Positions 2,387-62,019 are shown, counted from the stretch's first letter. The stretch: DNA of 64,000 nucleotides from Verrucomicrobiota bacterium (GCA_039815375.1 JBCBZJ010000004.1:1-64000); one strand, 5' to 3'. Notes: generated by a model from the letters alone, not told the origin. A program made the numbers and translations.

Positions 2387-4053
2387 AATCAGTGATCATT
2401 CGCGCAGACGGAGGTGGCATGATCGGAACAGGCCATATCATGCGAATGTTGGCCTTGGCACAAGCGATCAGGCGCAAGGGACAAAACGTAGTATTCGCGA
2501 CCGTCGCTTGTCCACCTAAGCTCGTCGAAAGATTGGAAAGCGCCAACCTAAACCATAGAAGACTAAAAGTAGAATCTGTAGGATCTACGTCTGACGCCGA
2601 ATCAACCATGGATCTAATAGAGGAGCTTGAAGCTCCTTGGGTCGTCCTAGATGGATATCACTTTGGCGTAGACTACCAAAACCGACTCGCCAAGACGGAC
2701 GCACAAGTGCTGTGTGTCGATGACCATCTCCACGGCAATGAATGGAATTGCGATGCAATCCTGAATCAAAACTTAGATGCGGAAATATGGGCTCACTACT
2801 CTAGCCAAAATCCAAACACACAAATGCTCTTGGGTTCTTCTTTCTGCCTACTCCGTGAAGAATTTCTGAAAGATAAGCCTTCAAAGAAGGGCTGGCAAAA
2901 AATCGAAAAACTACTCATCACTCTTGGAGGTTCAGACCCCGAGAATGCTAGCCTTAAAGTCCTAAATCTACTAGAGCAAACCGACTCTCCTTTTATTCAA
3001 ATCCGCCTAATCATCGGACCCGATAATCTGAATACTGAAACACTAAGAGCTTTCAAGACTCGACATGAAATCGACCTACTAAGTGACATTCATGATATGC
3101 CAGCGCAATATCAGTGGGCAGATGGAATCATTTCAGCTGGAGGAAGCACCTGCTGGGAATGGCTCCACCACAATCTACCAGGAGCAATTATAACCATTGC
3201 AGATAATCAAGAACCAATAGTCGAAGCGATCTGTAGTTCTCATAAATCAGCCCTATCTTTAGGTTGGTTCAACAAAATCGAACATCGGAAGAGTGAACTT
3301 CAAAATTGGTTAGAGAATCCAAGGGATGTCATTAACGAGGCCTACACTTCAACTCTTATTGATGGATTTGGAGCGGACCGCGTTGCCTCGCTTCTCACAG
3401 GTCAATTGAGGATTCATTTTCTAACACAAAAGGATGGTTGGATGTCACACCGTCTCCGAGAACTCATAGAGCAATCCAACTTGAGTCAGCACTCCCCAGA
3501 AATCTACTACGACACACAGGATCTCCCGAGGGGTGATTTGCTATTCATATTGTCATACTGGGGTCTTGTAGACTCTCGAACATTAGCAAAACATAGTCAC
3601 AACCTCGTCGTCCACGAAAGTGATCTCCCGAAAGGAAAGGGATGGTCTCCTCTAACATGGCAAATTATCGAAGGAAAGAATTCGATCCCATTCACGCTTT
3701 TCGAGGCAATCGAGAAAGTCGATGCGGGCGATATTTACGCACAGACCGAATTAGCTTTAAACGGAAACGAACTACTAGATGAACTCCACGAACTTCAAGT
3801 GAAAGAAACCATTAAGCTTTGTGAACATTTCGTAGATAAGTACCCAGCTGTCGTGACACAAAAACGACCTCAAAAAGGTAGGGATAGTTTCTATGAAAGA
3901 CGAACCCCTGCGTCAAGCGAACTGGATCCAACCTGCTCTATAGAAAAGCAGTTCGACCTATTACGAACAGTAGACAATCAGCTCTACCCTGCTTTTTTCT
4001 TTCATAGAGGCACAAAGTATATCCTTAGAATAAATCGCGCAGACAATGACTAA
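2383..4053 (+). CDS. pseG: PseG UDP-sugar hydrolase fused to a C-terminal formyltransferase-like domain
   Basis: RADGG..IGTGHIMR, LGGSD, SAGGSTCWE in N-terminus; HESDLPKGKGWSP and VDAGDIY in C-terminus. Confidence 0.85.
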   Translation: MKSVIIRADGGGMIGTGHIMRMLALAQAIRRKGQNVVFATVACPPKLVERLESANLNHRRLKVESVGSTSDAESTMDLIEELEAPWVVLDGYHFGVDYQNRLAKTDAQVLCVDDHLHGNEWNCDAILNQNLDAEIWAHYSSQNPNTQMLLGSSFCLLREEFLKDKPSKKGWQKIEKLLITLGGSDPENASLKVLNLLEQTDSPFIQIRLIIGPDNLNTETLRAFKTRHEIDLLSDIHDMPAQYQWADGIISAGGSTCWEWLHHNLPGAIITIADNQEPIVEAICSSHKSALSLGWFNKIEHRKSELQNWLENPRDVINEAYTSTLIDGFGADRVASLLTGQLRIHFLTQKDGWMSHRLRELIEQSNLSQHSPEIYYDTQDLPRGDLLFILSYWGLVDSRTLAKHSHNLVVHESDLPKGKGWSPLTWQIIEGKNSIPFTLFEAIEKVDAGDIYAQTELALNGNELLDELHELQVKETIKLCEHFVDKYPAVVTQKRPQKGRDSFYERRTPASSELDPTCSIEKQFDLLRTVDNQLYPAFFFHRGTKYILRINRADND

Positions 4054-43887: not shown

Positions 43888-45093
43888 ATGCCAAACGGCC
43901 CAGAAAATAACAAAATAACTGTGTCAAATCAAAGAACTCCAGCCAAACAGATTTCGCGCTCAAACAACGAAGCGAAGCGGCGCAGAAACAGCGTCAGAAC
44001 TATTACGGCTATCGACTTATTCGCAGGCGCAGGTGGTTTCTCGCTCGCAGCAGAAGAAGCAGGAGTAAAAGTCTTAGCAGCCGTTGAATGTGACAACTGG
44101 GCTCAGGCCACCTATCGGGCTAATTTTATTGACGGTCGCAGAGGCTCCGACAGGCATCGCCTCTACGGAGACGTCATGGACATTGAGCCCTCTGACATGC
44201 TCATGGACGTCAGATTAGAAAAAGGAGAGCTTGATTTGCTTATCGGTGGCCCCCCTTGCCAGGGCTTCTCATCACATCGCCTAAACGATGCAGGTGTAAA
44301 TGATCCGCGTAACGAACTTCTTTTGCGCTACTTCGATTTCGTGAAAGGTCTGCGTCCAAAAATATTTCTTGTCGAAAATGTTTCCGGCATGCTTTGGAAA
44401 CGGCATGAAGCCTACGTTCAAAAATTCAAACACTTGGCGAGACGAAACGGATACCGTCTGGTTGGAGGAGGCCCGCAGATAATCAACGCAAGAGACTTCG
44501 GAGTCCCGCAAAACAGGAAGCGCGTCTTCATCCTGGGTGTCCGTAATGACGTAGCTACACCGGAAGATTTCCAATGGCCACCTAAACCAACGCATTACTC
44601 GCCAAATTCAAAAGAAGCCCAAAACGGTGCACCAATCTGGAAGCCCGCCGCAGAAGTCTTCGAGAAACCGCTGGATAAAGCCGACCCCAATAACCTGCAC
44701 ATGCAACCCGGCTCTGAGATGTTGGAGCGCTTCAAGCGGACTCCAAAAAATGGAGGAAGCCGTTCCGACAGCGGGTACACTCTCGAATGCCACAAAACAC
44801 ATAAGGGCCACAAAGACGTTTACGGGCGTATAGACTCAACTAAACCCGGCCCGACTATGACAACTGGCTGCATAAATCCATCTAAAGGCCGGTTCGTCCA
44901 CCCTATCAAACACCACGGCATCACAGCAAGACACGCCGCCCGCTTCCAAACTTTCCCGGATTCGTTCATTTTCCAAGGGGGACTAGGTCAAGCAGGCAAA
45001 CAAATAGGCAATGCTGTCCCGATTGCACTTGGAGAGAAAATTATCAGATCCGTATTGGAGAGCATCGATGAGCAAAAAGACGCTAAAGATTAA
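43888..45093 (+). CDS. dcm: DNA (cytosine-5) methyltransferase
   Basis: DLFAGAGG, GGPPCQGFS, ENV, QNRKR, QIGNAVP. Confidence 0.95.
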   Translation: MPNGPENNKITVSNQRTPAKQISRSNNEAKRRRNSVRTITAIDLFAGAGGFSLAAEEAGVKVLAAVECDNWAQATYRANFIDGRRGSDRHRLYGDVMDIEPSDMLMDVRLEKGELDLLIGGPPCQGFSSHRLNDAGVNDPRNELLLRYFDFVKGLRPKIFLVENVSGMLWKRHEAYVQKFKHLARRNGYRLVGGGPQIINARDFGVPQNRKRVFILGVRNDVATPEDFQWPPKPTHYSPNSKEAQNGAPIWKPAAEVFEKPLDKADPNNLHMQPGSEMLERFKRTPKNGGSRSDSGYTLECHKTHKGHKDVYGRIDSTKPGPTMTTGCINPSKGRFVHPIKHHGITARHAARFQTFPDSFIFQGGLGQAGKQIGNAVPIALGEKIIRSVLESIDEQKDAKD

Positions 45094-47026
45094 ATTCCAC
45101 GGAAGGATCCTAGATCATCTTGGGATTCAAATGTATCAAAGCCCTGTTGCAGCAATAGCAGAACTTATTTCTAACGCCTGGGATGCTGAAGCCGAAAGCG
45201 TGAAGATAAGTATTCCAAATGCCGACAATAAGATTAACCACATTCTTGTTGAGGATGATGGAATTGGAATGACGCTCGATGACTGCGAGAAAAGATATCT
45301 CAACATAGGCTACTGCCGTAGGGGTAAGGATAATTCTATTGTTAAATCCCCATCGAAAAAACGACCAATTCTTGGAAGGAAAGGTATTGGAAAGTTTGCA
45401 GGCTTCGGTATCGCGCGGACAATTGAAGTTACGACTATTAGCAAGGAAACTGGAGAACTGACAAAGTTTCTACTAGATCTAGATCAACTCAGAACAGGTG
45501 AATACGTAGCCGAAGGTGGAACAATAGATGTAATAGAGCACCTAGAACCAGACGAAGAACGAAGATCCAAACATGGAACACAGCTAAAGCTTAAGGACTT
45601 GGTCCTCAAAAGACAGATTCGTAGAGACTTCCCCAAAAGCATGGCACGTAGGTTCATACTGCTTCAGCATGCACATGATTTTATAGTAACAATAAACGAA
45701 GAGAAGCTTCCACAAGATGGCGACCTACCCGGCATCGAATATTCATTCCCTTCAGATTATGACGAAAATGATGAAGGTGCCAAAAATTTGCACACAGATA
45801 GAGACGGTTGGGCTCTAGAGGAAATTGAAGGCTATAAAATAAAATGGAAAATCAATTTTTACAAAGACCCGATTGAGGTCGAAGAATTGCGAGGAATCTC
45901 AATTTTCGCTAATGGCAAACTCGCTCAAAAGGCATTCTTTTTCAATCTCACAGGAGGCCTAGGCGGCCAGCACGGACAAGAATATATGAGCGGCCAAGTT
46001 ATTGCCGACTACATCGACCAGATGGATTTCGATATCATCTCGCCAGAACGTCAGAGAATAAACTGGGAGGATGAGAACTCAATACCACTCGAGGCTTGGG
46101 GCCAAGGGAAGGTCAAAGAGTTACTGAAGAAATGGCAGGCTAAGCGCGGCAAAAAAAGGCAAGAGCAAATCGAATCTAAAGTTGATGGATTCTCTGATCG
46201 ACTTGGAAAATTCCAGCCAAGGGAACGGAATGTGGTGAAAACCACTCTAATGAAGCTTGGAAGCATTTCGACTCTTTCAGACGAACAATTCGAAACTTTG
46301 GGAAAATCTGTTCTACGCTCCTGGGAACAAGGGCGACTCAAGGAATTAATTACCGATTTGTCAGAAGTCGAAGAAATGGATGAGCAGAGTCTAGTAGAAA
46401 TTTTAACCGAACAGGATATTTTGACGGCACTCAATGTCGCCGAGGCCGTCAAAACTAAAAAACAAACAATTGACGGGCTCGAGAGAAGAGTAAAAGACAA
46501 GGAATTAGAAAACCCTGTCAGGGACTACATTGCTGAGAACCCTTGGCTAGTGCATCCGAAATACCAGACGTATAAAATTGAGTCCTCGCTTAAAAGCATC
46601 TTCGATCCATTTGCGATCAAACATAACATAAGCGATGGTTATGAGAAAAAAAGAGTAGATCTCATTCTTGAATCGGGCAATCAGCTGATAGTGCTCGAGT
46701 TTATGCGCCCAGGAAAGTCTCTCGACTGGGATCACCTCGCTCGCTACGAAATCTATTTCCGCGAAATCGTCGCCCACGTAAGGAGTAATTCTTCACTGAA
46801 TTACAATTCAGTAGAAGGCATCATCATCGCTGATAATCTAAATAAAGATGTCGCTTTCAATGACAAGCTACAGGCGCTCGTGCGAGACAATATGTATGCA
46901 TATGACTGGCAAACCCTACTAGCAAGAGCAGGCAGCGAATGGGGCGAATTTTTTGACGCATTAATCGAAAGAACTCCCAGGGATGCAAGAATGGCACAAT
47001 TGCTCGATCCGCCGAAAGAATCCTAA
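45068..47026 (+). CDS. GHKL/MORC-like ATPase with probable C-terminal nuclease-like domain
   Basis: ELISNAWDA, DDGIGM, GRKGIGKFA; C-terminal RVDLIL...VLEFMRPG. Confidence 0.8.
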   Translation: MSKKTLKIKFHGRILDHLGIQMYQSPVAAIAELISNAWDAEAESVKISIPNADNKINHILVEDDGIGMTLDDCEKRYLNIGYCRRGKDNSIVKSPSKKRPILGRKGIGKFAGFGIARTIEVTTISKETGELTKFLLDLDQLRTGEYVAEGGTIDVIEHLEPDEERRSKHGTQLKLKDLVLKRQIRRDFPKSMARRFILLQHAHDFIVTINEEKLPQDGDLPGIEYSFPSDYDENDEGAKNLHTDRDGWALEEIEGYKIKWKINFYKDPIEVEELRGISIFANGKLAQKAFFFNLTGGLGGQHGQEYMSGQVIADYIDQMDFDIISPERQRINWEDENSIPLEAWGQGKVKELLKKWQAKRGKKRQEQIESKVDGFSDRLGKFQPRERNVVKTTLMKLGSISTLSDEQFETLGKSVLRSWEQGRLKELITDLSEVEEMDEQSLVEILTEQDILTALNVAEAVKTKKQTIDGLERRVKDKELENPVRDYIAENPWLVHPKYQTYKIESSLKSIFDPFAIKHNISDGYEKKRVDLILESGNQLIVLEFMRPGKSLDWDHLARYEIYFREIVAHVRSNSSLNYNSVEGIIIADNLNKDVAFNDKLQALVRDNMYAYDWQTLLARAGSEWGEFFDALIERTPRDARMAQLLDPPKES

Positions 47027-47886
47027 ATGCCTAAGATAATTTTCACATCTGGCATCGATCCAGAATATGACGATATACCTGAAGTCAGATGTGAATTCCC
47101 ACAACGTTATTACAAAATGGTCAATGAGGCCATCGGCGACTGGGTGATTTACTATGAACCTAGAAAGAATGGTGGCAGAATGTCATACTATGCTTCGGCC
47201 AAAGTCGCTAAGGTCGAAAAACATCCCAAAAAATCGAATCATTTTTTCATGTTTGTTTCCGATTACCTCGAGTTCGCTCAGGCAGTTCCCTATCGCAGAG
47301 GAACTGAATAAATGGAATCGGCACTTGTCGGTGAAGGCGTTAAGCCCAACTTGGGCGCTCTTCAATGGTCAGTCAGGCGTTTGCTCGAACATGAATTTTT
47401 TGCAATCGTGCGGACAGGATTCGGAAACGAATTGATTATTTCAAAACAAGATACGCAAGTTGCAGAAGAACCAGCCGAATATAATAGACCCATAGTCAAG
47501 AAACTCACGAACCGCCCATTTCGAAATAAAGCATTCAGCAATCAAGTTCACGAAGCATACGACGACACGTGTGCGTTCACTGGCCTAAGGCTTAATAATG
47601 GGGCAGGACTGTTTGAGGTCGAGGCAGCTCACATACGAGCAGTTGAAGACAATGGACCGGACTCACCACGTAATGGCCTCGCACTTGGACAGACCATACA
47701 TTGGTTGTTCGACAAAGGTGTTCTCTCACTTGAAGACGATGGGAAAATACTGAAAGCTGGTCGTCTTGTTCCCGAAAAAGTGAATGCTCTACTCCACACG
47801 GATGGTTACGCACGATTACCAGAACGGGCGCAACTACAGCCTCACAAACAGTTTCTTAGGTTTCATCGTGAGAATCGCTTTCTAGG

Positions 47887-47890
<4 letters not shown>
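47027..47890 (+). pseudogene. HNH restriction endonuclease split by an in-frame TAA (47309-47311)
   Basis: 47027-47311 and 47312-47890 share a frame; CAFTG, EAAHI, NGLAL..TIHWLFDKG HNH motif in the second part. Confidence 0.75.
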
Positions 47891-48315
<425 letters not shown>

Positions 48316-48497
48316 AGGTAATACATTAATTGCTTGTGAATAGATGTGAAGCCTAGCGTCCATCAAAGGAAACTTCATCCGCATCTTCAAAGCAGGCAGC
48401 TACGCCGCCTACTCCTTAAAGAAAGTAAGCGATCCGGCTCAAACAAAACCTGAGTAGCCCATTCCCAGCCTCTGCTGTCTCTGTTTCCTCCTGTTCA

Positions 48498-50490: not shown

Positions 50491-50724
50491 GTGCCTGAAA
50501 AAATCGTCATTGGTCAGCGCGGCGTGCTGACACTACCCGCGAAGCTCCGGAAGCGCTATGCCCTGCAGCAGAACGACACTCTGCTCGTCGAGGAAACCCC
50601 GCAAGGCCTGCTGCTGCGCCCCTGCGTGAGCCTGCCGGTTGAGTTCTACTCGGAGGAACGCATTGCTGAGTTCAACGAAGACGATGCAGCAATCGGTGAA
50701 GCGCTGGATACATTGAACTCATAA
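50491..50724 (+). CDS. AbrB/MazE/SpoVT family antitoxin
   Basis: IGQRGVLTLPAKLRKRY...GLLLRP; upstream palindrome CAGAATT-N5-AATTCTG overlapping TTGACA. Confidence 0.8.
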   Translation: MPEKIVIGQRGVLTLPAKLRKRYALQQNDTLLVEETPQGLLLRPCVSLPVEFYSEERIAEFNEDDAAIGEALDTLNS

Positions 50725-50735
50725 TTCATCGATCG

Positions 50736-51086
50736 ATGAAATGTTTTCTGGCCGCCAATGTCCTCTTTTCAGCCGCCAATAAATTCAGCCAGCTCCATCG
50801 CTTGATCTATTGGCTACGAGAGAAGCACGAACTGATTACTTCCGACTACGCCGGCGAGGAAGCCATCCGCAACATCCGAGCCAAGCGGAGCGACTGAGAG
50901 TTGGGCTACACTCAAATCATGCAAGGCATTCGAACGGTCGAAAGCGTCCATCAGCCCATCGAAGTGGAACTCGCGGAAAAGGATCAGCCCATTTTAGCCA
51001 CAGCAATTGCAGAGGAATGTGATGTTCTCGTAAACGGCCGCTCCTTTGAAAAAGCGGACGAGCATAAGAAGGTCGACACTCCGTAG
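50736..51086 (+). pseudogene. PIN/VapC toxin pseudogene
   Basis: MKCFLAANVLFSA (canonical FLDxNV Asp lost), TGA at 50895-50897, continues EKDQPILATAI..CDVLV then diverges. Confidence 0.75.
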
Positions 51087-53887: not shown

Positions 53888-54016
53888 ATGCTACTATTAA
53901 ATCGCAGAACCATGCAGCCCAAAGCGGATTTTCTTAATGAATATCCGAAGGGGGATACATGCCCTCATGGCATTGGCATGTCCGGTTCTGAAAAGGTAGC
54001 GCTTATCTCAATATAG
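53888..54016 (+). CDS. Putative leader peptide 1 (42 aa)
   Basis: MLLLNRRTMQPK...VALISI*, after a TTGACA at 53838 and before a terminator. Confidence 0.35.
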   Translation: MLLLNRRTMQPKADFLNEYPKGDTCPHGIGMSGSEKVALISI

Positions 54017-54056
54017 TATTTATAGACGAGTTAACTAGAGGCACATTAACCCTTTC

Positions 54057-54096
54057 AAAAGGCCCGGACTGCAGATTGCAGCCGGGCCTTTTGTTT
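54057..54096 (+). terminator. Rho-independent terminator/attenuator 1
   Basis: AAAAGGCCCGG...CCGGGCCTTTTGTTT. Confidence 0.75.
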
Positions 54097-54261
54097 GCCC
54101 GAATCAAGACATTTTCCGTCTTCAAACCTGAAGATTGATCGCGTCAGGGCGGAGCTTTATTAGATTACATAAGTTATTTATTATAAATATTTTATGTAAT
54201 TTAATTGTTGACTCTTTATAAAATTCCATCCAAGTTCGGTGGCATAACTTTTTTCAAACAC

Positions 54262-54453
54262 ATGCATCTTCACATACATATTCAAATGCCCTGCGGCAGT
54301 TATCTTTGGTCACCCATTTCCCCAAACGGGTCCGATGATCTGTTAGCGCAGAGATTTGAGAATCCCATGGATTCAACACAAGCGAGGGCTTGTAGAGAGC
54401 AGGCATTTCAACCGCGTATTGCGGCCGAATGTTTAGAGAACACTAAACGATGA
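54262..54453 (+). CDS. Putative leader peptide 2 (63 aa, His-rich start)
   Basis: MHLHIHIQ...; TTGACT at 54208 upstream; stop about 20 nt before terminator 2. Confidence 0.4.
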   Translation: MHLHIHIQMPCGSYLWSPISPNGSDDLLAQRFENPMDSTQARACREQAFQPRIAAECLENTKR

Positions 54454-54473: not shown

Positions 54474-54510
54474 AAAGCCCAAGCCGCAGACACCGCGCTT
54501 GGGCTTTTTT
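54474..54510 (+). terminator. Rho-independent terminator/attenuator 2, upstream of the tRNA array
   Basis: AAAGCCCAAGC...GCTTGGGCTTTTTT. Confidence 0.75.
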
Positions 54511-54653
54511 GTTTCCACCAACTACAGTTTACCGGTCTCCCTTCCACCACAGCGAAGGGTCAAACGTCACGTAAATGGCGTCCAAACCACGACTCAGAAT
54601 TTGATCGTGAGAGGGGCGAAACAGCCGTCCTTGGTGGAAACAATTAACTTTAT

Positions 54654-54730
54654 GGTAGTTATCGCTTAATGGCTAAAGCACCTGACTGTGACTCAGGGGA
54701 TCTAGAGTTCGATTCTCAGTAACTACCCCA
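54654..54730 (+). tRNA. tRNA-His(GTG)
   Basis: G-1, GTAGTTA/TAACTAC acceptor, CCTGA-ctGTGac-TCAGG, C73, CCA. Confidence 0.9.
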
Positions 54731-54740
54731 ACCTTTCTAA

Positions 54741-54815
54741 GCCTCTGTCTTCCAACAGATAGGATAGCCGATTGTCTACCGGCAGATGTGGGTGCGATTC
54801 CCATCAGAGGCGCCA
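54741..54815 (+). tRNA. tRNA-Asp(GTC)
   Basis: GCCTCTG/CAGAGGC, ttGTCta loop, G73, CCA. Confidence 0.85.
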
Positions 54816-54823
54816 TTTTTTAT

Positions 54824-54899
54824 TCGGTGGTAGTTCAATAGGTAGAACGTGGCCCTGTTAAGGCCAATGTTGCAGGATCGTAGCCTGCCCACCGAGCCA
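54824..54899 (+). tRNA. tRNA-Asn(GTT)
   Basis: TCGGTGG/CCACCGA, TGGCC-ctGTTaa-GGCCA, G73, CCA. Confidence 0.9.
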
Positions 54900-54905
54900 G
54901 TTTAC

Positions 54906-54981
54906 GGGAGTGTAGTGTAGAGAGTCTGCACGTCTGGTTGAAGACCAGAAAGTCATGGTGCGATTCCATGCGCTTCCGCCA
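54906..54981 (+). tRNA. tRNA-Phe(GAA), atypical G73
   Basis: GGGAGTG/CGCTTCC, TCTGG-ttGAAga-CCAGA, CCA. Confidence 0.8.
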
Positions 54982-54983
54982 AC

Positions 54984-55072
54984 GGACAGGTAGAGCCGTA
55001 ATTGACAGCGGCGCCGGATTGTAAACCCGGAGCATCCATGCCTTGCAGGTTTGAGCCCTGCCCTGTCCACCA
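54984..55072 (+). tRNA. tRNA-Tyr(GTA)
   Basis: GGACAGG/CCTGTCC, ttGTAaa loop, long variable arm, A73, CCA. Confidence 0.85.
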
Positions 55073-55082
55073 AATTTAACAA

Positions 55083-55207
55083 CGTGGAGTGGCCAAATTA
55101 GCAAGGCTCCGGTCTTGGAGACCGGGAAACTGCAGGTGGTCCGGTTCCCTTCGTGCCCGGTCATGTCGTCACTTCGTTCCTCGGAACGAGTCCTGTCTCC
55201 GCGACCA
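55083..55207 (+). tRNA. tRNA-Pro(TGG) with a 48-nt insertion in the T-loop
   Basis: CGTGGAG/CTCCGCG-A-CCA, CCGGT-ctTGGag-ACCGG, T-stem GCAGG/CCTGT separated by extra sequence 55139-55186. Confidence 0.75.
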
Positions 55208-55213
55208 TTTTAT

Positions 55214-55290
55214 GACCAAGTAGCCCAATCGGTAGAGGCAGCTGCCTCAGAAGCAGTTCAGTGGGGGTTCGAATCCTCTCTTGGTTACCA
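55214..55290 (+). tRNA. tRNA-Leu(CAG), short variable loop
   Basis: GACCAAG/CTTGGTT, GCTGC-ctCAGaa-GCAGT, A73, CCA. Confidence 0.85.
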
Positions 55291-55296
55291 ATTCAA

Positions 55297-55371
55297 GCCT
55301 CATTAGTTCAACAAGTAGAACAGCCGGCTTTTACCCGGTAGGCCATGGTGCAAGTCCATGATGTGGCACCA
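55297..55371 (+). tRNA. tRNA-Lys(TTT)
   Basis: GCCTCAT/ATGTGGC (one T-T mismatch), GCCGG-ctTTTac-CCGGT, CCA. Confidence 0.85.
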
Positions 55372-55377
55372 ACTTGA

Positions 55378-55454
55378 AGCAGAGTAGCTCAATCAGTCAG
55401 AGCGCGGGTCTCATACGCCCGAGGTTGTGGGTGCGATTCCCATCTCTGCAACCA
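55378..55454 (+). tRNA. tRNA-Met(CAT), 1:72 mismatch (initiator-like)
   Basis: AGCAGAG/CTCTGCA, CGGGT-ctCATac-GCCCG, A73, CCA. Confidence 0.85.
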
Positions 55455-55459
55455 TCTTA

Positions 55460-55531
55460 GCCCGTATCGTCTAGTAGCTAGGATCTCGCGCTTTCCACGC
55501 GATGACGCCGGTGCAAATCCGGCTACGGGTT
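55460..55531 (+). tRNA. tRNA-Glu(TTC), no encoded CCA
   Basis: GCCCGTA/TACGGGT, TCGCG-ctTTCca-CGCGA, Glu-type D arm. Confidence 0.8.
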
Positions 55532-55538
55532 ACTTTCC

Positions 55539-55609
55539 TGCGGGATAGTGTAAGGGCCGCACAGCGAACTTTGACTCCGCTAGAGAAGGTTCGAATCCTT
55601 CTCCCGCAA
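55539..55609 (+). tRNA. tRNA-Gln(TTG), no encoded CCA
   Basis: TGCGGGA/TCCCGCA (U1-A72), ctTTGac loop, GTTCGAATC. Confidence 0.85.
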
Positions 55610-55613
55610 TTTT

Positions 55614-56143
55614 CCGGCGCAGCCGGAGACCGCTAATTATCGCTCATAGACGCTAATGGATTGAGTCGACAGGTAGATGATTCATTCGTTAATCAAATGA
55701 CACATAACACGGAATACATGGCCGATGAAGGATACGCTCTCATCGGCGCCGCATTCGAAGTCCATCGGGAACTCGGCGGTGGCCTGAGCGAAGAAATCTA
55801 CCAAGAAAGCATAGAGATCGAACTCGGCATGCGAAATATCCCATTCAAATCGAAGGACGAACTAAGGGTCTTTTACAAGCAACAGCCCCTGAACAAGCGC
55901 TATATACCGGACCTCACCGTTTCAGGCGAGATCATCACCGAACTCAAAGCCGCTAAGGAGCTCACACACGAACATCACCGGCAACTCATCAATTACATGC
56001 GAGTCACTGAAAAAGCTGTTGGATATCTCATCAACTTCGGCCCCACAGACCAACTCGAGTGGAAGCGTTTCATCCTCAGAGACTTCATTCCTATAGAGCA
56101 TCAGCGCCTATAAGCGAGAATCAGCGGTCGCCAGCTCAGCTGG
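55614..56143 (+). mobile_element. GxxExxY gene cassette bounded by 45-bp imperfect inverted repeats
   Basis: 55614-55658 matches the reverse complement of 56099-56143 at 35/45 positions by manual alignment. Confidence 0.6.
55697..56113 (+). CDS. GxxExxY protein (PD-(D/E)XK-like)
   Basis: IGAAFEVHRELGGGLSEEIYQE, PDL, ELKA, QLINY, GYLINFG. Confidence 0.9.
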   Translation: MTHNTEYMADEGYALIGAAFEVHRELGGGLSEEIYQESIEIELGMRNIPFKSKDELRVFYKQQPLNKRYIPDLTVSGEIITELKAAKELTHEHHRQLINYMRVTEKAVGYLINFGPTDQLEWKRFILRDFIPIEHQRL

Positions 56144-56245
56144 CACATACAGATCACTTTTACAAATTTCCGGTCGGCGGCGCAATGCTCTCAGGCTTTC
56201 TGTCAGGTCATTGCGTTCCGCATCGACGTTCTAGACGGAAACCAT

Positions 56246-56315
56246 GCAAACATAGCCAAATGGTAAGGCATCCTGCATCACAGGAAAGATGCCGGTTCGA
56301 ATCCGGCTGATTGCA
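56246..56315 (+). tRNA. tRNA-like gene with a 5-nt anticodon loop (identity undetermined, possible pseudo-tRNA)
   Basis: TAGCCAAATGGTAAGGC D arm, TCCTG-catca-CAGGA, GCCGG-TTCGAAT-CCGGC. Confidence 0.65.
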
Positions 56316-56318
56316 CCG

Positions 56319-56392
56319 ATACTGTTAGCTCAGATAGGTAGAGCAGTTGACTGAAACTCAACTTGTCCCGGGTTCAATTCCCGGACAGTAAA
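56319..56392 (+). tRNA. tRNA-Phe(GAA)-like, no CCA
   Basis: TAGCTCAG..GGTAGAGC, GTTGA-ctGAAac-TCAAC, CCGGG-TTCAATT-CCCGG; 1:72 unpaired. Confidence 0.7.
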
Positions 56393-56393
56393 A

Positions 56394-56467
56394 TGGATAG
56401 TAGAGCAAATGGTTAGCTCACAGGATTAAGGTTCCTGCGGATGGAGGTTCGAATCCTCCCTACCCGA
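56394..56467 (+). tRNA. tRNA-like gene with AAG anticodon (identity uncertain)
   Basis: GAGC/GCTC D stem, CAGGA-ttAAGgt-TCCTG, GGAGG-TTCGAAT-CCTCC, imperfect acceptor. Confidence 0.6.
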
Positions 56468-56792
56468 CAAAGGGCTTGGCCGCCCTCTAAAGGCCTCCAA
56501 AACCGCCCAAGGAGAGAACGGGCGACTCGTGAAAGCCAGGCACAGCCACCACATCATGCGGGTGGATGCGCCAGCAGTTTCACCACCTGCGAGGATGCGG
56601 ATACCGGATATCTCAAACCTCAGGCCTACGAAGTGAAGAACCGGCCCATCGATCTGCACCGCATGTCGACCGGATCACCGCAAACTCATTTTGAAACGCC
56701 TCAGGCGCGGAATTCCTTAAGCATCATCCCGTGGTCCGAAGCTGTGGCGGATCGTCTCATCCGAACTCTCTGCGGGCACAACTTTCATAAAG

Positions 56793-56918: not shown

Positions 56919-58034
56919 ATGCTATTCTTCAAATACATCAACATCCCGTATGAGTATGTCGGTTTGAAATTCCGCGATGGCCAATTCGTTGAACTGCTCC
57001 AGTCCGGACGCCAATGGATCTTCGATCGATTCGGCCGCACTGTCGTCAACATTGTATGGCAAGGCGACCCATGGATCGAAATTTCCAAGGCCCAACTGAA
57101 GCAGCTTCGCGAAAACGACGCCGTCAACGGATATGCCGAATTCATCGATATGAAGGACAATCAACGCGCCCTCGTTTGGCTCGATGGTCGTTTCTATGGC
57201 ATCCTCAAACCAGGCCTCTACGGCTACTGGAAATCTCCAGTTAAAGTTAAAATCGAAATCGTGGAACTAGAAGACGTCCGTTTTCAACACGCACAATTCG
57301 ATATCATCACTAAAGACAAAGACGTCGCCGTCCACCTGAACATTCAGGACATCGAAGATGGCAAGGTTGGCGTCCTCTACGTCGATGGTGATTTCGTCGA
57401 GATACTCAAACCAGGTCGTTACGCATTCTGGAAGAACGTGGGCAACGTCCGCATCTATCAGTATGACCTACGTGAAAAAGTCCTCGATGTAACCGGCCAG
57501 GAAATCATGACTGCCGATAAGGTCACTCTACGACTCAATGCAGTCCTAAGCTACCGACTGGATGATGTCCGCAAGGTTGCTGAATCCGCAAAAGACGTCG
57601 AACAGGCGCTCTACCGTGAGATTCAGCTCATCATCCGCGCTGAAGTCGGCGGCCGCACGCTCGACCAGCTACTGGCAGACAAGTCCGCCGTCGCCAACGA
57701 AGCACTCAACGCAATTCGAGGGAAAGCAGCCGGCTATGGAATCGAAGTCAAAGGTCTGGGCATCCGTGATGTCATCCTACCGGGTGACATGAAGGAACTG
57801 CTCAACCAAGTCATCGAGGCCGAGAAAGCGGCCCAGGCCAACAACATCAAGCGTCGCGAAGAAACTGCTGCCATGCGCAGCCAGCTCAACTCTGCGAAAC
57901 TGATCGAGCAAAACCCAACCCTCATGCGTCTGCGTGAACTCGAGTCTGTCGAAAAAATCACTGAAAAGGCTAACCTGCAAATCTTCGTCGGAGATGGACA
58001 GGACCTGACTAAGCGAATCGTCAAACTCATCTAG
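56919..58034 (+). CDS. SPFH/band 7 (slipin family) protein
   Basis: Repeated LxPG N-terminal motifs, GQEIMTADKVTLRLN, RDVILPG, RREETAA, LMRLRELE. Confidence 0.85.
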   Translation: MLFFKYINIPYEYVGLKFRDGQFVELLQSGRQWIFDRFGRTVVNIVWQGDPWIEISKAQLKQLRENDAVNGYAEFIDMKDNQRALVWLDGRFYGILKPGLYGYWKSPVKVKIEIVELEDVRFQHAQFDIITKDKDVAVHLNIQDIEDGKVGVLYVDGDFVEILKPGRYAFWKNVGNVRIYQYDLREKVLDVTGQEIMTADKVTLRLNAVLSYRLDDVRKVAESAKDVEQALYREIQLIIRAEVGGRTLDQLLADKSAVANEALNAIRGKAAGYGIEVKGLGIRDVILPGDMKELLNQVIEAEKAAQANNIKRREETAAMRSQLNSAKLIEQNPTLMRLRELESVEKITEKANLQIFVGDGQDLTKRIVKLI

Positions 58035-58035
58035 C

Positions 58036-58068
58036 AAAGCCCCGGAGCCAGATACTCCGGGGCTTTTT
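58036..58068 (+). terminator. Rho-independent terminator
   Basis: AAAGCCCCGGAG-CCAGATA-CTCCGGGGCTTTTT. Confidence 0.85.
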
Positions 58069-59477: not shown

Positions 59478-59541
59478 TTCGATCAGGATTACAGTCAGCG
59501 CGGTCTGACGTAAGCGGATCCTTAAACACTTTCATTTCTTG

Positions 59542-59574
59542 AAGCCCCGGAGCATCTCACTCCGGGGCTTTTTT
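59542..59574 (+). terminator. Rho-independent terminator/attenuator upstream of the RtcB operon
   Basis: AAGCCCCGGAG-CATCTCA-CTCCGGGGCTTTTTT, same stem as 58036. Confidence 0.8.
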
Positions 59575-59625
59575 ATTTTCCAACACACACACAAATCAAA
59601 TCAACCGCCTTTAGAGGCAACCACT

Positions 59626-60612
59626 ATGAACGAACAAGAAATCCAATTCATTTGCGGCTGCCTATCGGAAGGCCGCACCAAATACTATACCTTCAAAGAC
59701 CACTACGTCTTTCAAATCCTCTCCTGGAAGCTCGGAAGCGGCAGCATCAAGGTGCGCGAGATTAAGACGCATCCGACTTTTGCCCGCTATGCCAACCGGC
59801 CCGCCTTCAGGGAATTCCTGCAACGTTTGCCAAATGGCATCATCGATCAGGAAAGCCTGCAAAGCTACTGGCCAACACACGATTCAATCCAAGCCTTCCG
59901 GCTTACACTGGATCGCTGGGGTGATTTTGATTCCGGCAATGATGACTGGAACCAAACCTCGCGCCGCGGCTACAATCTGGTGCTTCAACTCAACTTCCCT
60001 ATCGCCAACAGCCGTGAATATCGGGAACTCGACGAAGAAGACGATAACCCGTTCTACTTCGGTTCCAAATGCCATCCATCCCGTATTGGAGAAATCACGA
60101 CCATGTCCTGGGCCCGACTCGACATCAACCTCGATGAAGGCACCGCTCTCATTGAAGAGATTCAGACCGACTGGCTACGTGACGCCCGCGAAGAGCGTGA
60201 ACGAATCGAACGTCGTCTCAAAGACCAGAAGCTTTCAATCAACGACACCTGGAGTGGCATCAAAGTATGGAAAATTCTCCGCTACTTCGACCGACACATC
60301 CAGCCACTGATAAAGCTGTGGGACGAAGCCACTCTGGAAGCTGCCCTCTGGTTCCTTCGTGAAGAGCTCGGCATGGAGCAAGTGTATTACCACACTTGGA
60401 ATACAGGCCTCTGGTTTAAGCGCCTTGAGCCTAACTTTGCTCCACCCCGCTCGCTCTACACCAAGCTACCACAGCGCTTCGGCTTCGACTGCGTCGAGCA
60501 GGGCCCGGAGTTCATCCTCGAACAACCGGAAAACCGCCGACGCCTCAAAAGTAAACGCAACAAACATGAATCGCCAAAATGGTGGTTCATGAATTTAAAA
60601 CAAACCGCATAA
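59626..60612 (+). CDS. Hypothetical protein co-operonic with rtcB
   Basis: 328 aa from MNEQEIQF; QTSRRGYNLVLQLNF, IEEIQTDW, PPRSLYTKLPQRFGF; 9 bp before rtcB. Confidence 0.7.
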   Translation: MNEQEIQFICGCLSEGRTKYYTFKDHYVFQILSWKLGSGSIKVREIKTHPTFARYANRPAFREFLQRLPNGIIDQESLQSYWPTHDSIQAFRLTLDRWGDFDSGNDDWNQTSRRGYNLVLQLNFPIANSREYRELDEEDDNPFYFGSKCHPSRIGEITTMSWARLDINLDEGTALIEEIQTDWLRDAREERERIERRLKDQKLSINDTWSGIKVWKILRYFDRHIQPLIKLWDEATLEAALWFLREELGMEQVYYHTWNTGLWFKRLEPNFAPPRSLYTKLPQRFGFDCVEQGPEFILEQPENRRRLKSKRNKHESPKWWFMNLKQTA

Positions 60613-60621
60613 GGAAATACA

Positions 60622-62019
60622 ATGAACGCAGAAGACCTACGTCGTTGGGGTATCCCTCCAGGAGATGCCATGCGACTCACATTCCAAATCATCAAACGGC
60701 TATTTAATGAATCGATTCCAGCCGAGACTGTTCGCTCGCAGCTACTCGCAGTGATTCATCAACCATCCGCGCACCTCAACGATTCGCATTGGAGTGAACT
60801 CGCTCAGATGCTTGATGAGATCACTATCTTCGAGCCACGTGCCGAGCCAGCACCTTACCATCAATGGGGTAAGGATCTTGATGCAAACGCCATCGAACAA
60901 ATGAGGAATGCCTGCCAACTGCCCATCGCAGTGGCTGGAGCACTCATGCCTGATGCTCACCTAGGATACGGACTACCAATCGGAGGCGTCCTCGCAACAA
61001 AAGGCGCAGTCATCCCATACGCAGTCGGTGTCGACATCGCCTGTCGTATGAAGCTGACCGTGCTCGACCTGCCGCTCAAGCACTTCGAGAAACGCACCAA
61101 GATCGACCGCTTGAAAAAAGCGATCGAAGCTGAAACGCGTTTCGGAACCGGTGCCCGTTTCCAGAAAGATGCCATCCGCAACCACAAAGTTATGGATGCC
61201 GACTGGTCGATCACCAAGGTGACGGCCGCAGCTAAGGACAAAGCTTGGACACAACTCGGAACTTCGGGAAGCGGCAACCACTTCGTCGAGTTCGGTATCT
61301 TCGAAATCGAGACAGATGAACTAGGGCTGGGACCTGGCCAGTACATCGCCCTCCTCTCCCATAGCGGAAGCCGAGGCGCAGGTGCAGCCGTTGCCGGGCA
61401 CTACTCGAAGCTCGCCCGCGAAGCTCATCCAGAGCTACCGGACAAGCTGAAGCATCTGGCATGGCTCGAAATGAATAAGGAGTCCGGTCAAGCATACTGG
61501 GCAGCGATGAACCTCATGGGCGATTACGCGGCAGCCAACCATAGCTGTATCCATAAACATATCGCACGTCACCTCGGAGCCGAAGTCCTCCTCGATGTTG
61601 AGAACCACCATAACTTCGCGTGGAAGGAAGAGCACCTCGGCGACGAGCTCATCGTTCATCGCAAAGGGGCAACACCAGCGGGTAAAGGCATAATGGGAAT
61701 CATCCCTGGATCGATGGCTAGCCCAGCCTACCTCGTCCGAGGAAAAGGCAAGGCAGAGTCCCTCAACTCCGCATCTCACGGAGCTGGACGTGTCATGTCC
61801 CGCCGAAAGGCAGCTGAACACCTTCGCTGGGAAGATGCGAACAAGCTCCTTAAAGCACAGCAAGTTGAGCTCATCTCGGCTGGCCTCGATGAAGTCCCGG
61901 CCGTCTACAAAGATATCGAAACCGTGATGGACGCCCAAAGCGACCTCGTCGAAAAACTCGGCCGCTTTCATCCACGACTCGTCAAGATGGCACCTCCGGG
62001 AGAACGTCCTGAAGATTAA
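60622..62019 (+). CDS. rtcB: RtcB family RNA 2',3'-cyclic phosphate/5'-OH ligase
   Basis: MPDAHLGYGLPIGG, VGVDIACRM, GSGNHFVE, HSGSRG, HHN, HRKGAT, SHGAGR, DEVP..YK. Confidence 0.95.
   Translation: MNAEDLRRWGIPPGDAMRLTFQIIKRLFNESIPAETVRSQLLAVIHQPSAHLNDSHWSELAQMLDEITIFEPRAEPAPYHQWGKDLDANAIEQMRNACQLPIAVAGALMPDAHLGYGLPIGGVLATKGAVIPYAVGVDIACRMKLTVLDLPLKHFEKRTKIDRLKKAIEAETRFGTGARFQKDAIRNHKVMDADWSITKVTAAAKDKAWTQLGTSGSGNHFVEFGIFEIETDELGLGPGQYIALLSHSGSRGAGAAVAGHYSKLAREAHPELPDKLKHLAWLEMNKESGQAYWAAMNLMGDYAAANHSCIHKHIARHLGAEVLLDVENHHNFAWKEEHLGDELIVHRKGATPAGKGIMGIIPGSMASPAYLVRGKGKAESLNSASHGAGRVMSRRKAAEHLRWEDANKLLKAQQVELISAGLDEVPAVYKDIETVMDAQSDLVEKLGRFHPRLVKMAPPGERPED

Follow-up and report, generated by a model that had tools for sequence, protein, structure and literature searches.

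The 64,000-nucleotide stretch of Verrucomicrobiota DNA analysed here (hereafter the window; GCA_039815375.1, JBCBZJ010000004.1:1-64000) carries a locus that we read, with a probability of roughly 0.6, as a partly eroded, stress-induced unit of spare tRNAs and Band-7/RtcB RNA repair, with a likely horizontally moved tRNA array inside it. This reading is built on the gene content of the locus, its redundancy with the tRNA set of the host, the variable content of orthologous arrays, destructive insertions in the array, covariation in three structured RNAs (elements A, B and C) and the fast-changing anticodon of a tRNA mimic; the steps that join these parts we infer. The locus unites inducible tRNA arrays with the never-validated b7a-tRNA, both of which are known but poorly understood. 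A sequence-only reading had linked the array to tRNA damage, and this broad theme holds through the context (Band-7 and RtcB genes downstream, a duplicated host set and a tilt towards U35 tRNAs in Opitutales), whereas its specific claim, that the complete U35 set was selected as nuclease replacements, is not supported.

Gene content and condition of the array

Eleven isotypes (His, Asp, Asn, Phe, Tyr, Pro, Leu, Lys, Met, Glu and Gln) are encoded within 955 bp (54655-55609), closely spaced, non-periodic and on one strand (+, as are the other features of the locus described below), which agrees with the spacing of an L-array. Eight of them are called by ARAGORN. tRNA-His(GTG) (54655-54730, with G-1:C73 present), tRNA-Asn(GTT) (54824-54899), tRNA-Phe(GAA) (54906-54981) and tRNA-Lys(TTT) (55297-55371) are recognised by Rfam as well, and the other ARAGORN calls are tRNA-Leu(CAG) (55214-55290), which has a short variable arm, a gene with a CAT anticodon (55378-55454), tRNA-Glu(TTC) (55460-55533, with C37) and tRNA-Gln(TTG) (55539-55609), the last two without an encoded CCA. 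tRNA-Asp(GTC) (54741-54815) is weak, with no GG in the D loop and with U37; Rfam places it at 54741-54812 with 42.7 bits, and it is lost in genome G017 and at locus L023. tRNA-Tyr(GTA) (54984-55072) was found by relaxed ARAGORN and reaches 19.4 bits in Rfam, below the cut-off of 29, and despite this low model score it shows only 3 mismatches to G017 over 88 aligned bases. With tRNA-Pro(TGG) (55083-55207; Rfam 18.1 bits), which was read from the sequence, all the isotypes previously listed, including the seven amino acids with NAN codons, were recovered, and it is equally correct that no Ala, Arg, Cys, Gly, Ile, Ser, Thr, Trp or Val gene lies in this span.

The T loop of tRNA-Pro is interrupted by a repeat of ~50 nt (about 55138-55187). 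Because sequences like this insert stand at two other places in the genome (G000 C2:~29090 and C37:~84970) and the same repeat interrupts the Pro and Leu genes of L025, the tRNA-Pro of the window is likely a pseudogene; the dispersed look-alikes and the copies in other T loops also rule out an intron. The repeat has the ends GTTCCG...CGGAAC and inserts at tRNA T loops. The CAT gene could be Met, fMet or Ile2. It has an A-A first pair but lacks the G-C triple at positions 29-31 that marks fMet tRNAs, and locus L161 carries the same tRNA body with the anticodon GAT; for these two reasons the gene may not be fMet, which leaves the proposed link to VapC cleavage of tRNA-fMet without footing. T loops with G55 occur in five of the eleven array genes, and odd variable arms were seen in relatives (L150:2708-2801, L160 and L161), short in Leu genes and long in Pro genes.

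The host genome (G000), whose closest SPFH relatives are Opitutales, contains 38 other tRNA genes that cover every array anticodon, making the array supernumerary to a complete host set. Six of the seven U35 anticodon loops differ from their host counterparts outside the anticodon, and the loops of the non-U35 genes Phe and Leu differ too. The window tRNAs match genes of their own isotype in long arrays (best 54-75%) no better than host genes (49-62%), except for Glu and Gln, and their descent from a long array is thus deduced from the shared B-Y-C-SPFH context and not from tRNA identity. A housekeeping-located Leu(AAG) call in the host (C37:174941-175027) has an A34 anticodon, which is unusual in bacteria.

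Directly behind the array lies an insertion (55609-56148) in which a GxxExxY nuclease gene of the PD-(D/E)XK type (55661-56113) is placed between 50-nt inverted repeats, and which, beyond the window, occurs only in G017 and L023. In G017, palindromic repeats replace the Asp and Pro-Leu genes. Inverted repeats like those flanking the GxxExxY gene, but without cargo, stand in place of tRNA genes there (L022:770-860 and 1142-1239), which suggests that the GxxExxY gene and the cargo-free repeats belong to a small mobile element family.

U35 tRNAs in the window and in homologous arrays

For a single array, a random 11 of the 20 amino acids would include all seven NAN ones with a probability of 0.0043, and drawing at least seven U35 genes among 11 from a 40-anticodon composite array has a probability of 0.0013. 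A random draw is however too lenient a null, because U35 genes clump in real long arrays: among contiguous 11-gene stretches of such arrays, the best holds 6-7 U35 genes in 8 of 17 arrays. Homologous loci were therefore compared, sampled as the best 80 of 445 by their downstream SPFH protein plus 15 regions found by the element A motif (four matches with two mismatches were left out, and a reversed control matched at a similar rate). The merged set comprises 15 Opitutales loci with the full layout, 13 with canonical tRNAs and two without (L153 and L159, which retain A, B, the mimics, C and SPFH); three more loci carry element A with no B or C detected. Opitutales isotypes were curated from ARAGORN, with damaged Pro and Lys genes counted as present.

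The comparison of homologous arrays, proposed as a check of the sequence-only reading, shows a tilt but goes against the reading itself. U35 genes make up 57 of the 108 genes (53%) in the 13 Opitutales arrays versus 129 of 451 (29%) in 17 long non-Opitutales arrays covering 12-19 amino acids each, and over all seven-amino-acid sets the Opitutales tilt has a P value of 0.003, the arrays being kin and not independent. The complete seven-type set, on the other hand, occurs in just one of the 13 orthologous arrays, that of the window. Gln is present in 12 arrays, Lys and Asn in 9, Glu, Phe, His and Met in 8, Leu and Arg in 7, Asp in 6, Cys, Pro and Tyr in 5, Ile and Trp in 3, Gly and Ser in 2 and Ala in 1, with Thr and Val absent throughout. 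Within the SPFH clade of the window (support 100/99) the arrays hold 11, 8, 5, 10, 0, 9 and 6 genes, and of the 13 isotypes in their union the window keeps 11. The five sister arrays (the array-less L159 left out) lost 13 of 35 U35 genes and 14 of the 30 that are not U35 (P = 0.46), so that U35 genes were lost like the rest; with the window included the losses are 13 of 42 versus 16 of 36 (P = 0.25). Among 12 short non-Opitutales remnants of planctomycete type, with at least 7 kb of upstream sequence, only 9 of 43 genes (21%) are U35, and these remnants tend to retain Arg, Cys and Trp, which lie closest to the 3' end, on the side of element B. Within the amino acids served by one tRNA, those with U35 are not favoured over Phe, Cys, Met and Trp (P = 0.11).

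A U35 tilt thus exists at the level of the lineage, real and lineage-bound, and is indistinguishable from a set of 'one-tRNA amino acids'. The full set of the window is most likely the remainder of a U35-rich 13-gene ancestor in its least eroded descendant. The pattern is a modest tilt and not a rule, and erosion alone does not explain its origin.

These results make it unlikely that the content was selected to replace U35 tRNAs that are targets of nucleases of the colicin E5, PrrC or VapC type or that depend on Q or s2U modification, as had been proposed. The seven U35 genes among the eleven of the window (P = 0.0013-0.004), the 53% versus 29% shares, the six U35 loops unlike those of the host outside the anticodon, and the presence in the host of tgt and 10 PIN matches are what such selection would leave; yet the complete set is confined to one array of 13, sister arrays drop U35 genes as often as others, Phe and Met (8 of 13 each) are retained like His and more than Asp or Tyr, the remnants outside Opitutales are U35-poor, U35 is not favoured within the one-tRNA amino acids, and the Phe and Leu loops differ from those of the host as well. 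A search of the host genome for AAA_13, which we take to be the family of RloC/PrrC-type ATPases, gave no match. Moreover, all four GUN genes (His, Asp, Asn and Tyr) retain U33-G34-U35, the YGU determinant described as an absolute requirement of colicin E5 (PMC1635277), so that the E5 site is kept.

Selection of the content as backup for amino acids that depend on one tRNA gene each (those with one or two codons, the NAN amino acids being the largest part) we regard as quite unlikely. As a set, these 11 amino acids are over-represented (P = 0.0014) and account for 9 of the 11 window genes, and few or no arrays carry Ala, Gly, Ser, Thr or Val; against this, Leu and Arg are common, planctomycete-type remnants keep Arg, Cys and Trp, which lie closest to element B, and the arrays are kin. 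It appears improbable that only the Band-7 RNA module is maintained and that the canonical tRNAs are a decaying cargo, silent and at present without function. Repeat insertions and deletions in many orthologues, the two loci without an array, odd features (the five G55 T loops and the two genes lacking CCA) and the description of degenerate planctomycete clusters as possibly dispensable (PMC4807772) would all suit decay, but in the genes that remain only 3-18% of sites differ from G017, compared with 36% of SPFH four-fold sites, their anticodons are unchanged, and 23 of 26 Anabaena array tRNAs are charged (PMC8421152). Most likely the array is a dispensable, eroding middle part of the unit. 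It was found in none of eight same-genus genomes and in one of 60 relatives, while its SPFH clade spans three families, a patchy distribution that points to horizontal spread.

Conserved RNAs around the array

The view centred on the array had missed a conserved core, which consists of the leader, elements A, B and C, three tRNA-like genes at 56246-56468, SPFH and RtcB. The leader starts with a predicted promoter, whose -35-like hexamer TTGACT (54208-54213) follows an AT-rich stretch; a simple promoter scan missed it, and TTGAC stands at the same place in the orthologous leaders compared. A 63-codon leader ORF (54262-54453) ends 110-147 nt before the core of element A in 17 of 18 loci, despite unrelated peptides, and is followed by an intrinsic-terminator-like hairpin with a U tract (54474-54514; 11-bp perfect arms, inverted repeat I7) that is present in 17 loci. 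The predicted antiterminator at 54386-54399 (inverted repeat I9), within the ORF, can pair with the 5' arm of the terminator. In 14 of 17 loci the best partner of that arm is found 71-93 nt upstream, the sequence having changed on both sides, although the pairing beats shuffles individually in only 6 of 17. From this arrangement the leader ORF, terminator and antiterminator are predicted to form an attenuator, which may explain how arrays outside cyanobacteria detect stress on translation. At 53938-54160, before the array promoter, the window holds a second short ORF with a terminator (54056-54095) and a conserved GCGTC..GGCGGAGCTT motif, an arrangement that recurs in several orthologues.

Element A (54509-54643; 18 loci) is a conserved structured RNA formed by a hairpin with an H-type pseudoknot and then two stems, and its 13-bp closing stem (I4) overlaps the U tract of the terminator. 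Over the 18 loci 95% of the cells are paired, the covariation score is reached by none of 500 shuffles, and a pair in the pseudoknot alternates between UA (8), CG (7) and UG (3). At 0-1 mismatch the element occurs in 16 of 401 order-level genomes, from six families. Patterns for elements A and B found no match in metagenome or viral contigs, and Rfam searches gave no match for A, B or C.

Element B (56167-56244) is an irregular hairpin ending in CCA, with two-sided changes in 11 of 16 pairs across 15 Opitutales loci (0 of 500 shuffles), and a related hairpin is found in a 40-locus alignment of mostly planctomycete sequences. Then follow the tRNA-like genes X (56246-56317, called by ARAGORN), Y (56319-56392, the middle mimic) and Z (56394-56468), the last of which reads AAG in the window and AAG, CAG, ATG, AGG, GAA, CGT or TGT in orthologues; the anticodon of X differs between orthologues too, and both vary as that of Y does. 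Element C (56505-56777) is a rod-like RNA of ~280-330 nt with an invariant GGAUACC internal loop. Two-sided changes affect 31 of its 46 predicted pairs (14 loci; RNAalifold counts alone), and the consensus is retained in 50 mostly planctomycete loci. A resemblance of B and C to domain V of 23S rRNA was rejected, since no 10-mer is shared in the window and forward matches are about as frequent as reverse ones. Between Z and C, L022 (2478-2494) and its orthologues carry a CUAGC/GCUAG hairpin with a variable, 7-nt, anticodon-loop-like loop; the window has lost this small hairpin by a deletion near 56500.

In 72 of the best 80 of 445 loci SPFH has a tRNA-like gene in front of it, detected by pattern in 63 and by model R1 in nine, and five of the eight loci lacking one have less than 450 nt of upstream sequence. 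The planctomycete mimic has no full acceptor stem. Tandem or partial tRNA-like genes also precede the SPFH homologue in Burkholderia, Photobacterium, Citrobacter, E. coli and Subdoligranulum records. In a search of the phylum with model R1 the three best matches, the only ones checked, adjoin SPFH; as the model scores ordinary tRNAs at 60-70 bits, this search gives no distribution.

The anticodon of Y was compared in 62 of 86 loci tried, loci being dropped for no pattern match or fewer than four stem pairs, as was L028. These loci show 29 anticodons, corresponding to 15 amino acids and a stop, and the entropy reaches 1.8-1.9 bits at positions 34-36, compared with 0.7-0.9 at 32, 37 and 38 and 1.4 at 33. 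A34 occurs in 19 of the 62 loci versus 7 of 612 array tRNAs, and U35 in 20. Between the members of 13 disjoint close pairs, differences fall on 21 of 39 anticodon positions versus 11.2 expected from SPFH four-fold sites (P~6e-4), an excess that codon bias may inflate by slowing those sites, the pairs being disjoint but kin; in the rest of Y only 61 of 674 positions differ between the same pairs. G37 follows G36 in 11 of 21 loci versus 2 of 41 otherwise, and G37 with G36 is a feature of real tRNAs that read CNN codons. Copying of the Y loops from the same array was rejected, with a loop match in only 2 of 15 loci. An anticodon that changes faster than synonymous sites suggests, as a reading of sequence comparisons, that Y is a diversifying decoy, and makes this role directly testable.

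An exact copy of the 12-nt sarcin-ricin loop of the host 23S gene, noticed post hoc, lies within a short hairpin between Z and C in four of the 15 Opitutales loci (L149:3718, L150:4342, L151:3535 and L152:3367), three of them close kin and the window not among them; within one mismatch it is absent from all other SPFH loci among the best 80 of 445. Taken further, B-(X)-Y-(Z)-C might be one stress-induced RNA of ~600 nt that displays interchangeable ribotoxin targets in an arms race with anticodon nucleases across phyla, a reading that we put forward as doubtful. The diversifying anticodon loops, and in some lineages the sarcin-ricin loop, would form the panel of decoys, and the RNA would take up or signal attacks by nucleases and pass cleaved RNA on to RtcB held by the Band-7 protein, under the control of a stall-sensing leader-peptide attenuator.

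Known systems and a model of the locus

The Band-7/SPFH (slipin) gene (56919-58034; 371 aa; PF01145, E 2e-32) is followed by a terminator-like hairpin (58036-58066), with another after the next ORF. Two ORFs with no assigned family separate it from RtcB; one of 357 aa (59539-60612) matches only unnamed clusters in the Atlas and follows SPFH in several Opitutales loci. The RNA ligase gene RtcB (60622-62019; PF01139, E 8e-87) is the only copy found in the genome and lies 2.6 kb downstream of SPFH, in keeping with the b7a-tRNA module. Among the best 80 of 445 loci, RtcB is near SPFH in 6 of the 60 with at least 5 kb downstream, and it is so in 3 of 5 loci outside that group. Both the low count of 6 in 60 and the two terminator-like hairpins weigh against the proposed unit.

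Burroughs & Aravind (2016) described the b7a-tRNA as a tRNA-like ncRNA beside a Band-7 gene with RtcB nearby (10.1101/312249), and by this likeness Y fits the type. As there, a tRNA-like gene adjoins the Band-7 gene and RtcB is near, but the window has three mimics instead of one, flanked by hairpin B and rod C and preceded by a tRNA array. Rfam 15 gave no match to a b7a-tRNA family, and in the literature covered, to which the original 2016 paper does not belong, the term b7a-tRNA turned up in one paper, and we found no description of anticodon variability, of element A or C, or of the attenuator.

In Anabaena, stress that targets the ribosome induces the L-array together with rtcB (PMC8421152), and the trn operon is induced together with a slipin gene as part of the TrcR regulon (Table 1 of PMC10272220). 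L-arrays are long, beyond the accretion curve and with up to 43 genes, and their named carriers include Verrucomicrobia and Planctomycetes; Santamaria-Gomez et al. (2021) proposed sponge and repair roles and reported no codon-usage fit (PMC8421152). The window shares with these systems the same-strand supernumerary tRNAs, the patchy distribution and the link to rtcB and slipin (PMC8421152, PMC10272220). In contrast to the Anabaena trn operon it has only 11 canonical genes (11 + 3 with the mimics, homologous arrays reaching 35 ARAGORN calls), an apparent leader-ORF attenuator in place of a repressor, no HNH gene adjoining the array, and elements A, B and C as flanks.

With the RtcR/sigma-54 operons (rtcR-SPFH-rtcB-rlaP-rtcA in P. 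aeruginosa and rsr-yrlBA-rtcBA in Salmonella) the locus shares the long SPFH subfamily, RtcB and a tRNA-like RNA, and tRNA-like genes or T-arm remnants precede the SPFH homologue in L168-L172; however no rtcR lies beside the window locus and no Ro60 is found in the genome. In E. coli and Citrobacter (L168:~3640-3745 and L172:~3630-3730), a B-like hairpin and a lone T arm lie between a promoter, whose motif we take to be of sigma-54 type, and the slipin gene. In P. aeruginosa the rtc locus contains SPFH (PMC13086221). The tRNAs with which phages escape anticodon nucleases (van den Berg et al. 2023, PMC10264068) are likewise spare tRNAs with host-unlike loops, but the array here is chromosomal and keeps the E5 site, and no full-length SPFH homologue was found in 50,697 phage records. 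Two other RNAs were considered and rejected. YrlA Y RNA is contradicted by the lack of Ro60/Rsr (TROVE) in G000 (and its presence in 1 of 5 and 0 of 5 other carrier genomes), by element B reading GUCGGCGG against the motif GNCGAAN0-1G (PMC4201824), by the normal arm order of X, Y and Z with no permuted tRNA domain, and by an RF02553 score of 22.4 bits against a cut-off of 69. GOLLD RNA (RF02032) was found in none of five carrier genomes at E<=1 and gave no match in the Rfam searches.

Returning to the stress-induced unit, the following course of events is proposed. A ribosome at the leader stop would cover the antiterminator and let the terminator form, whereas a lagging ribosome would allow the antiterminator to form, so that the tRNAs, the B-X-Y-Z-C RNA and SPFH are made. 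The spare tRNAs would serve as a bulk top-up or as a sponge and not by nuclease resistance, the mimics may act as nuclease decoys or as partners or cofactors of the ligase, and RtcB, which stands behind two further terminator-like hairpins and is perhaps transcribed separately, would reseal cut RNAs.

The gene upstream of the locus encodes an HpiC1-like protein. At 50491-51086 an AbrB/MazE-type antitoxin gene precedes two short ORFs that by eye resemble a split PIN toxin, with no family match for the pieces. About 6 kb upstream (43888-48390), a C5 DNA methylase, an HATPase protein, an HNH nuclease and Vsr form a restriction-modification-like island.
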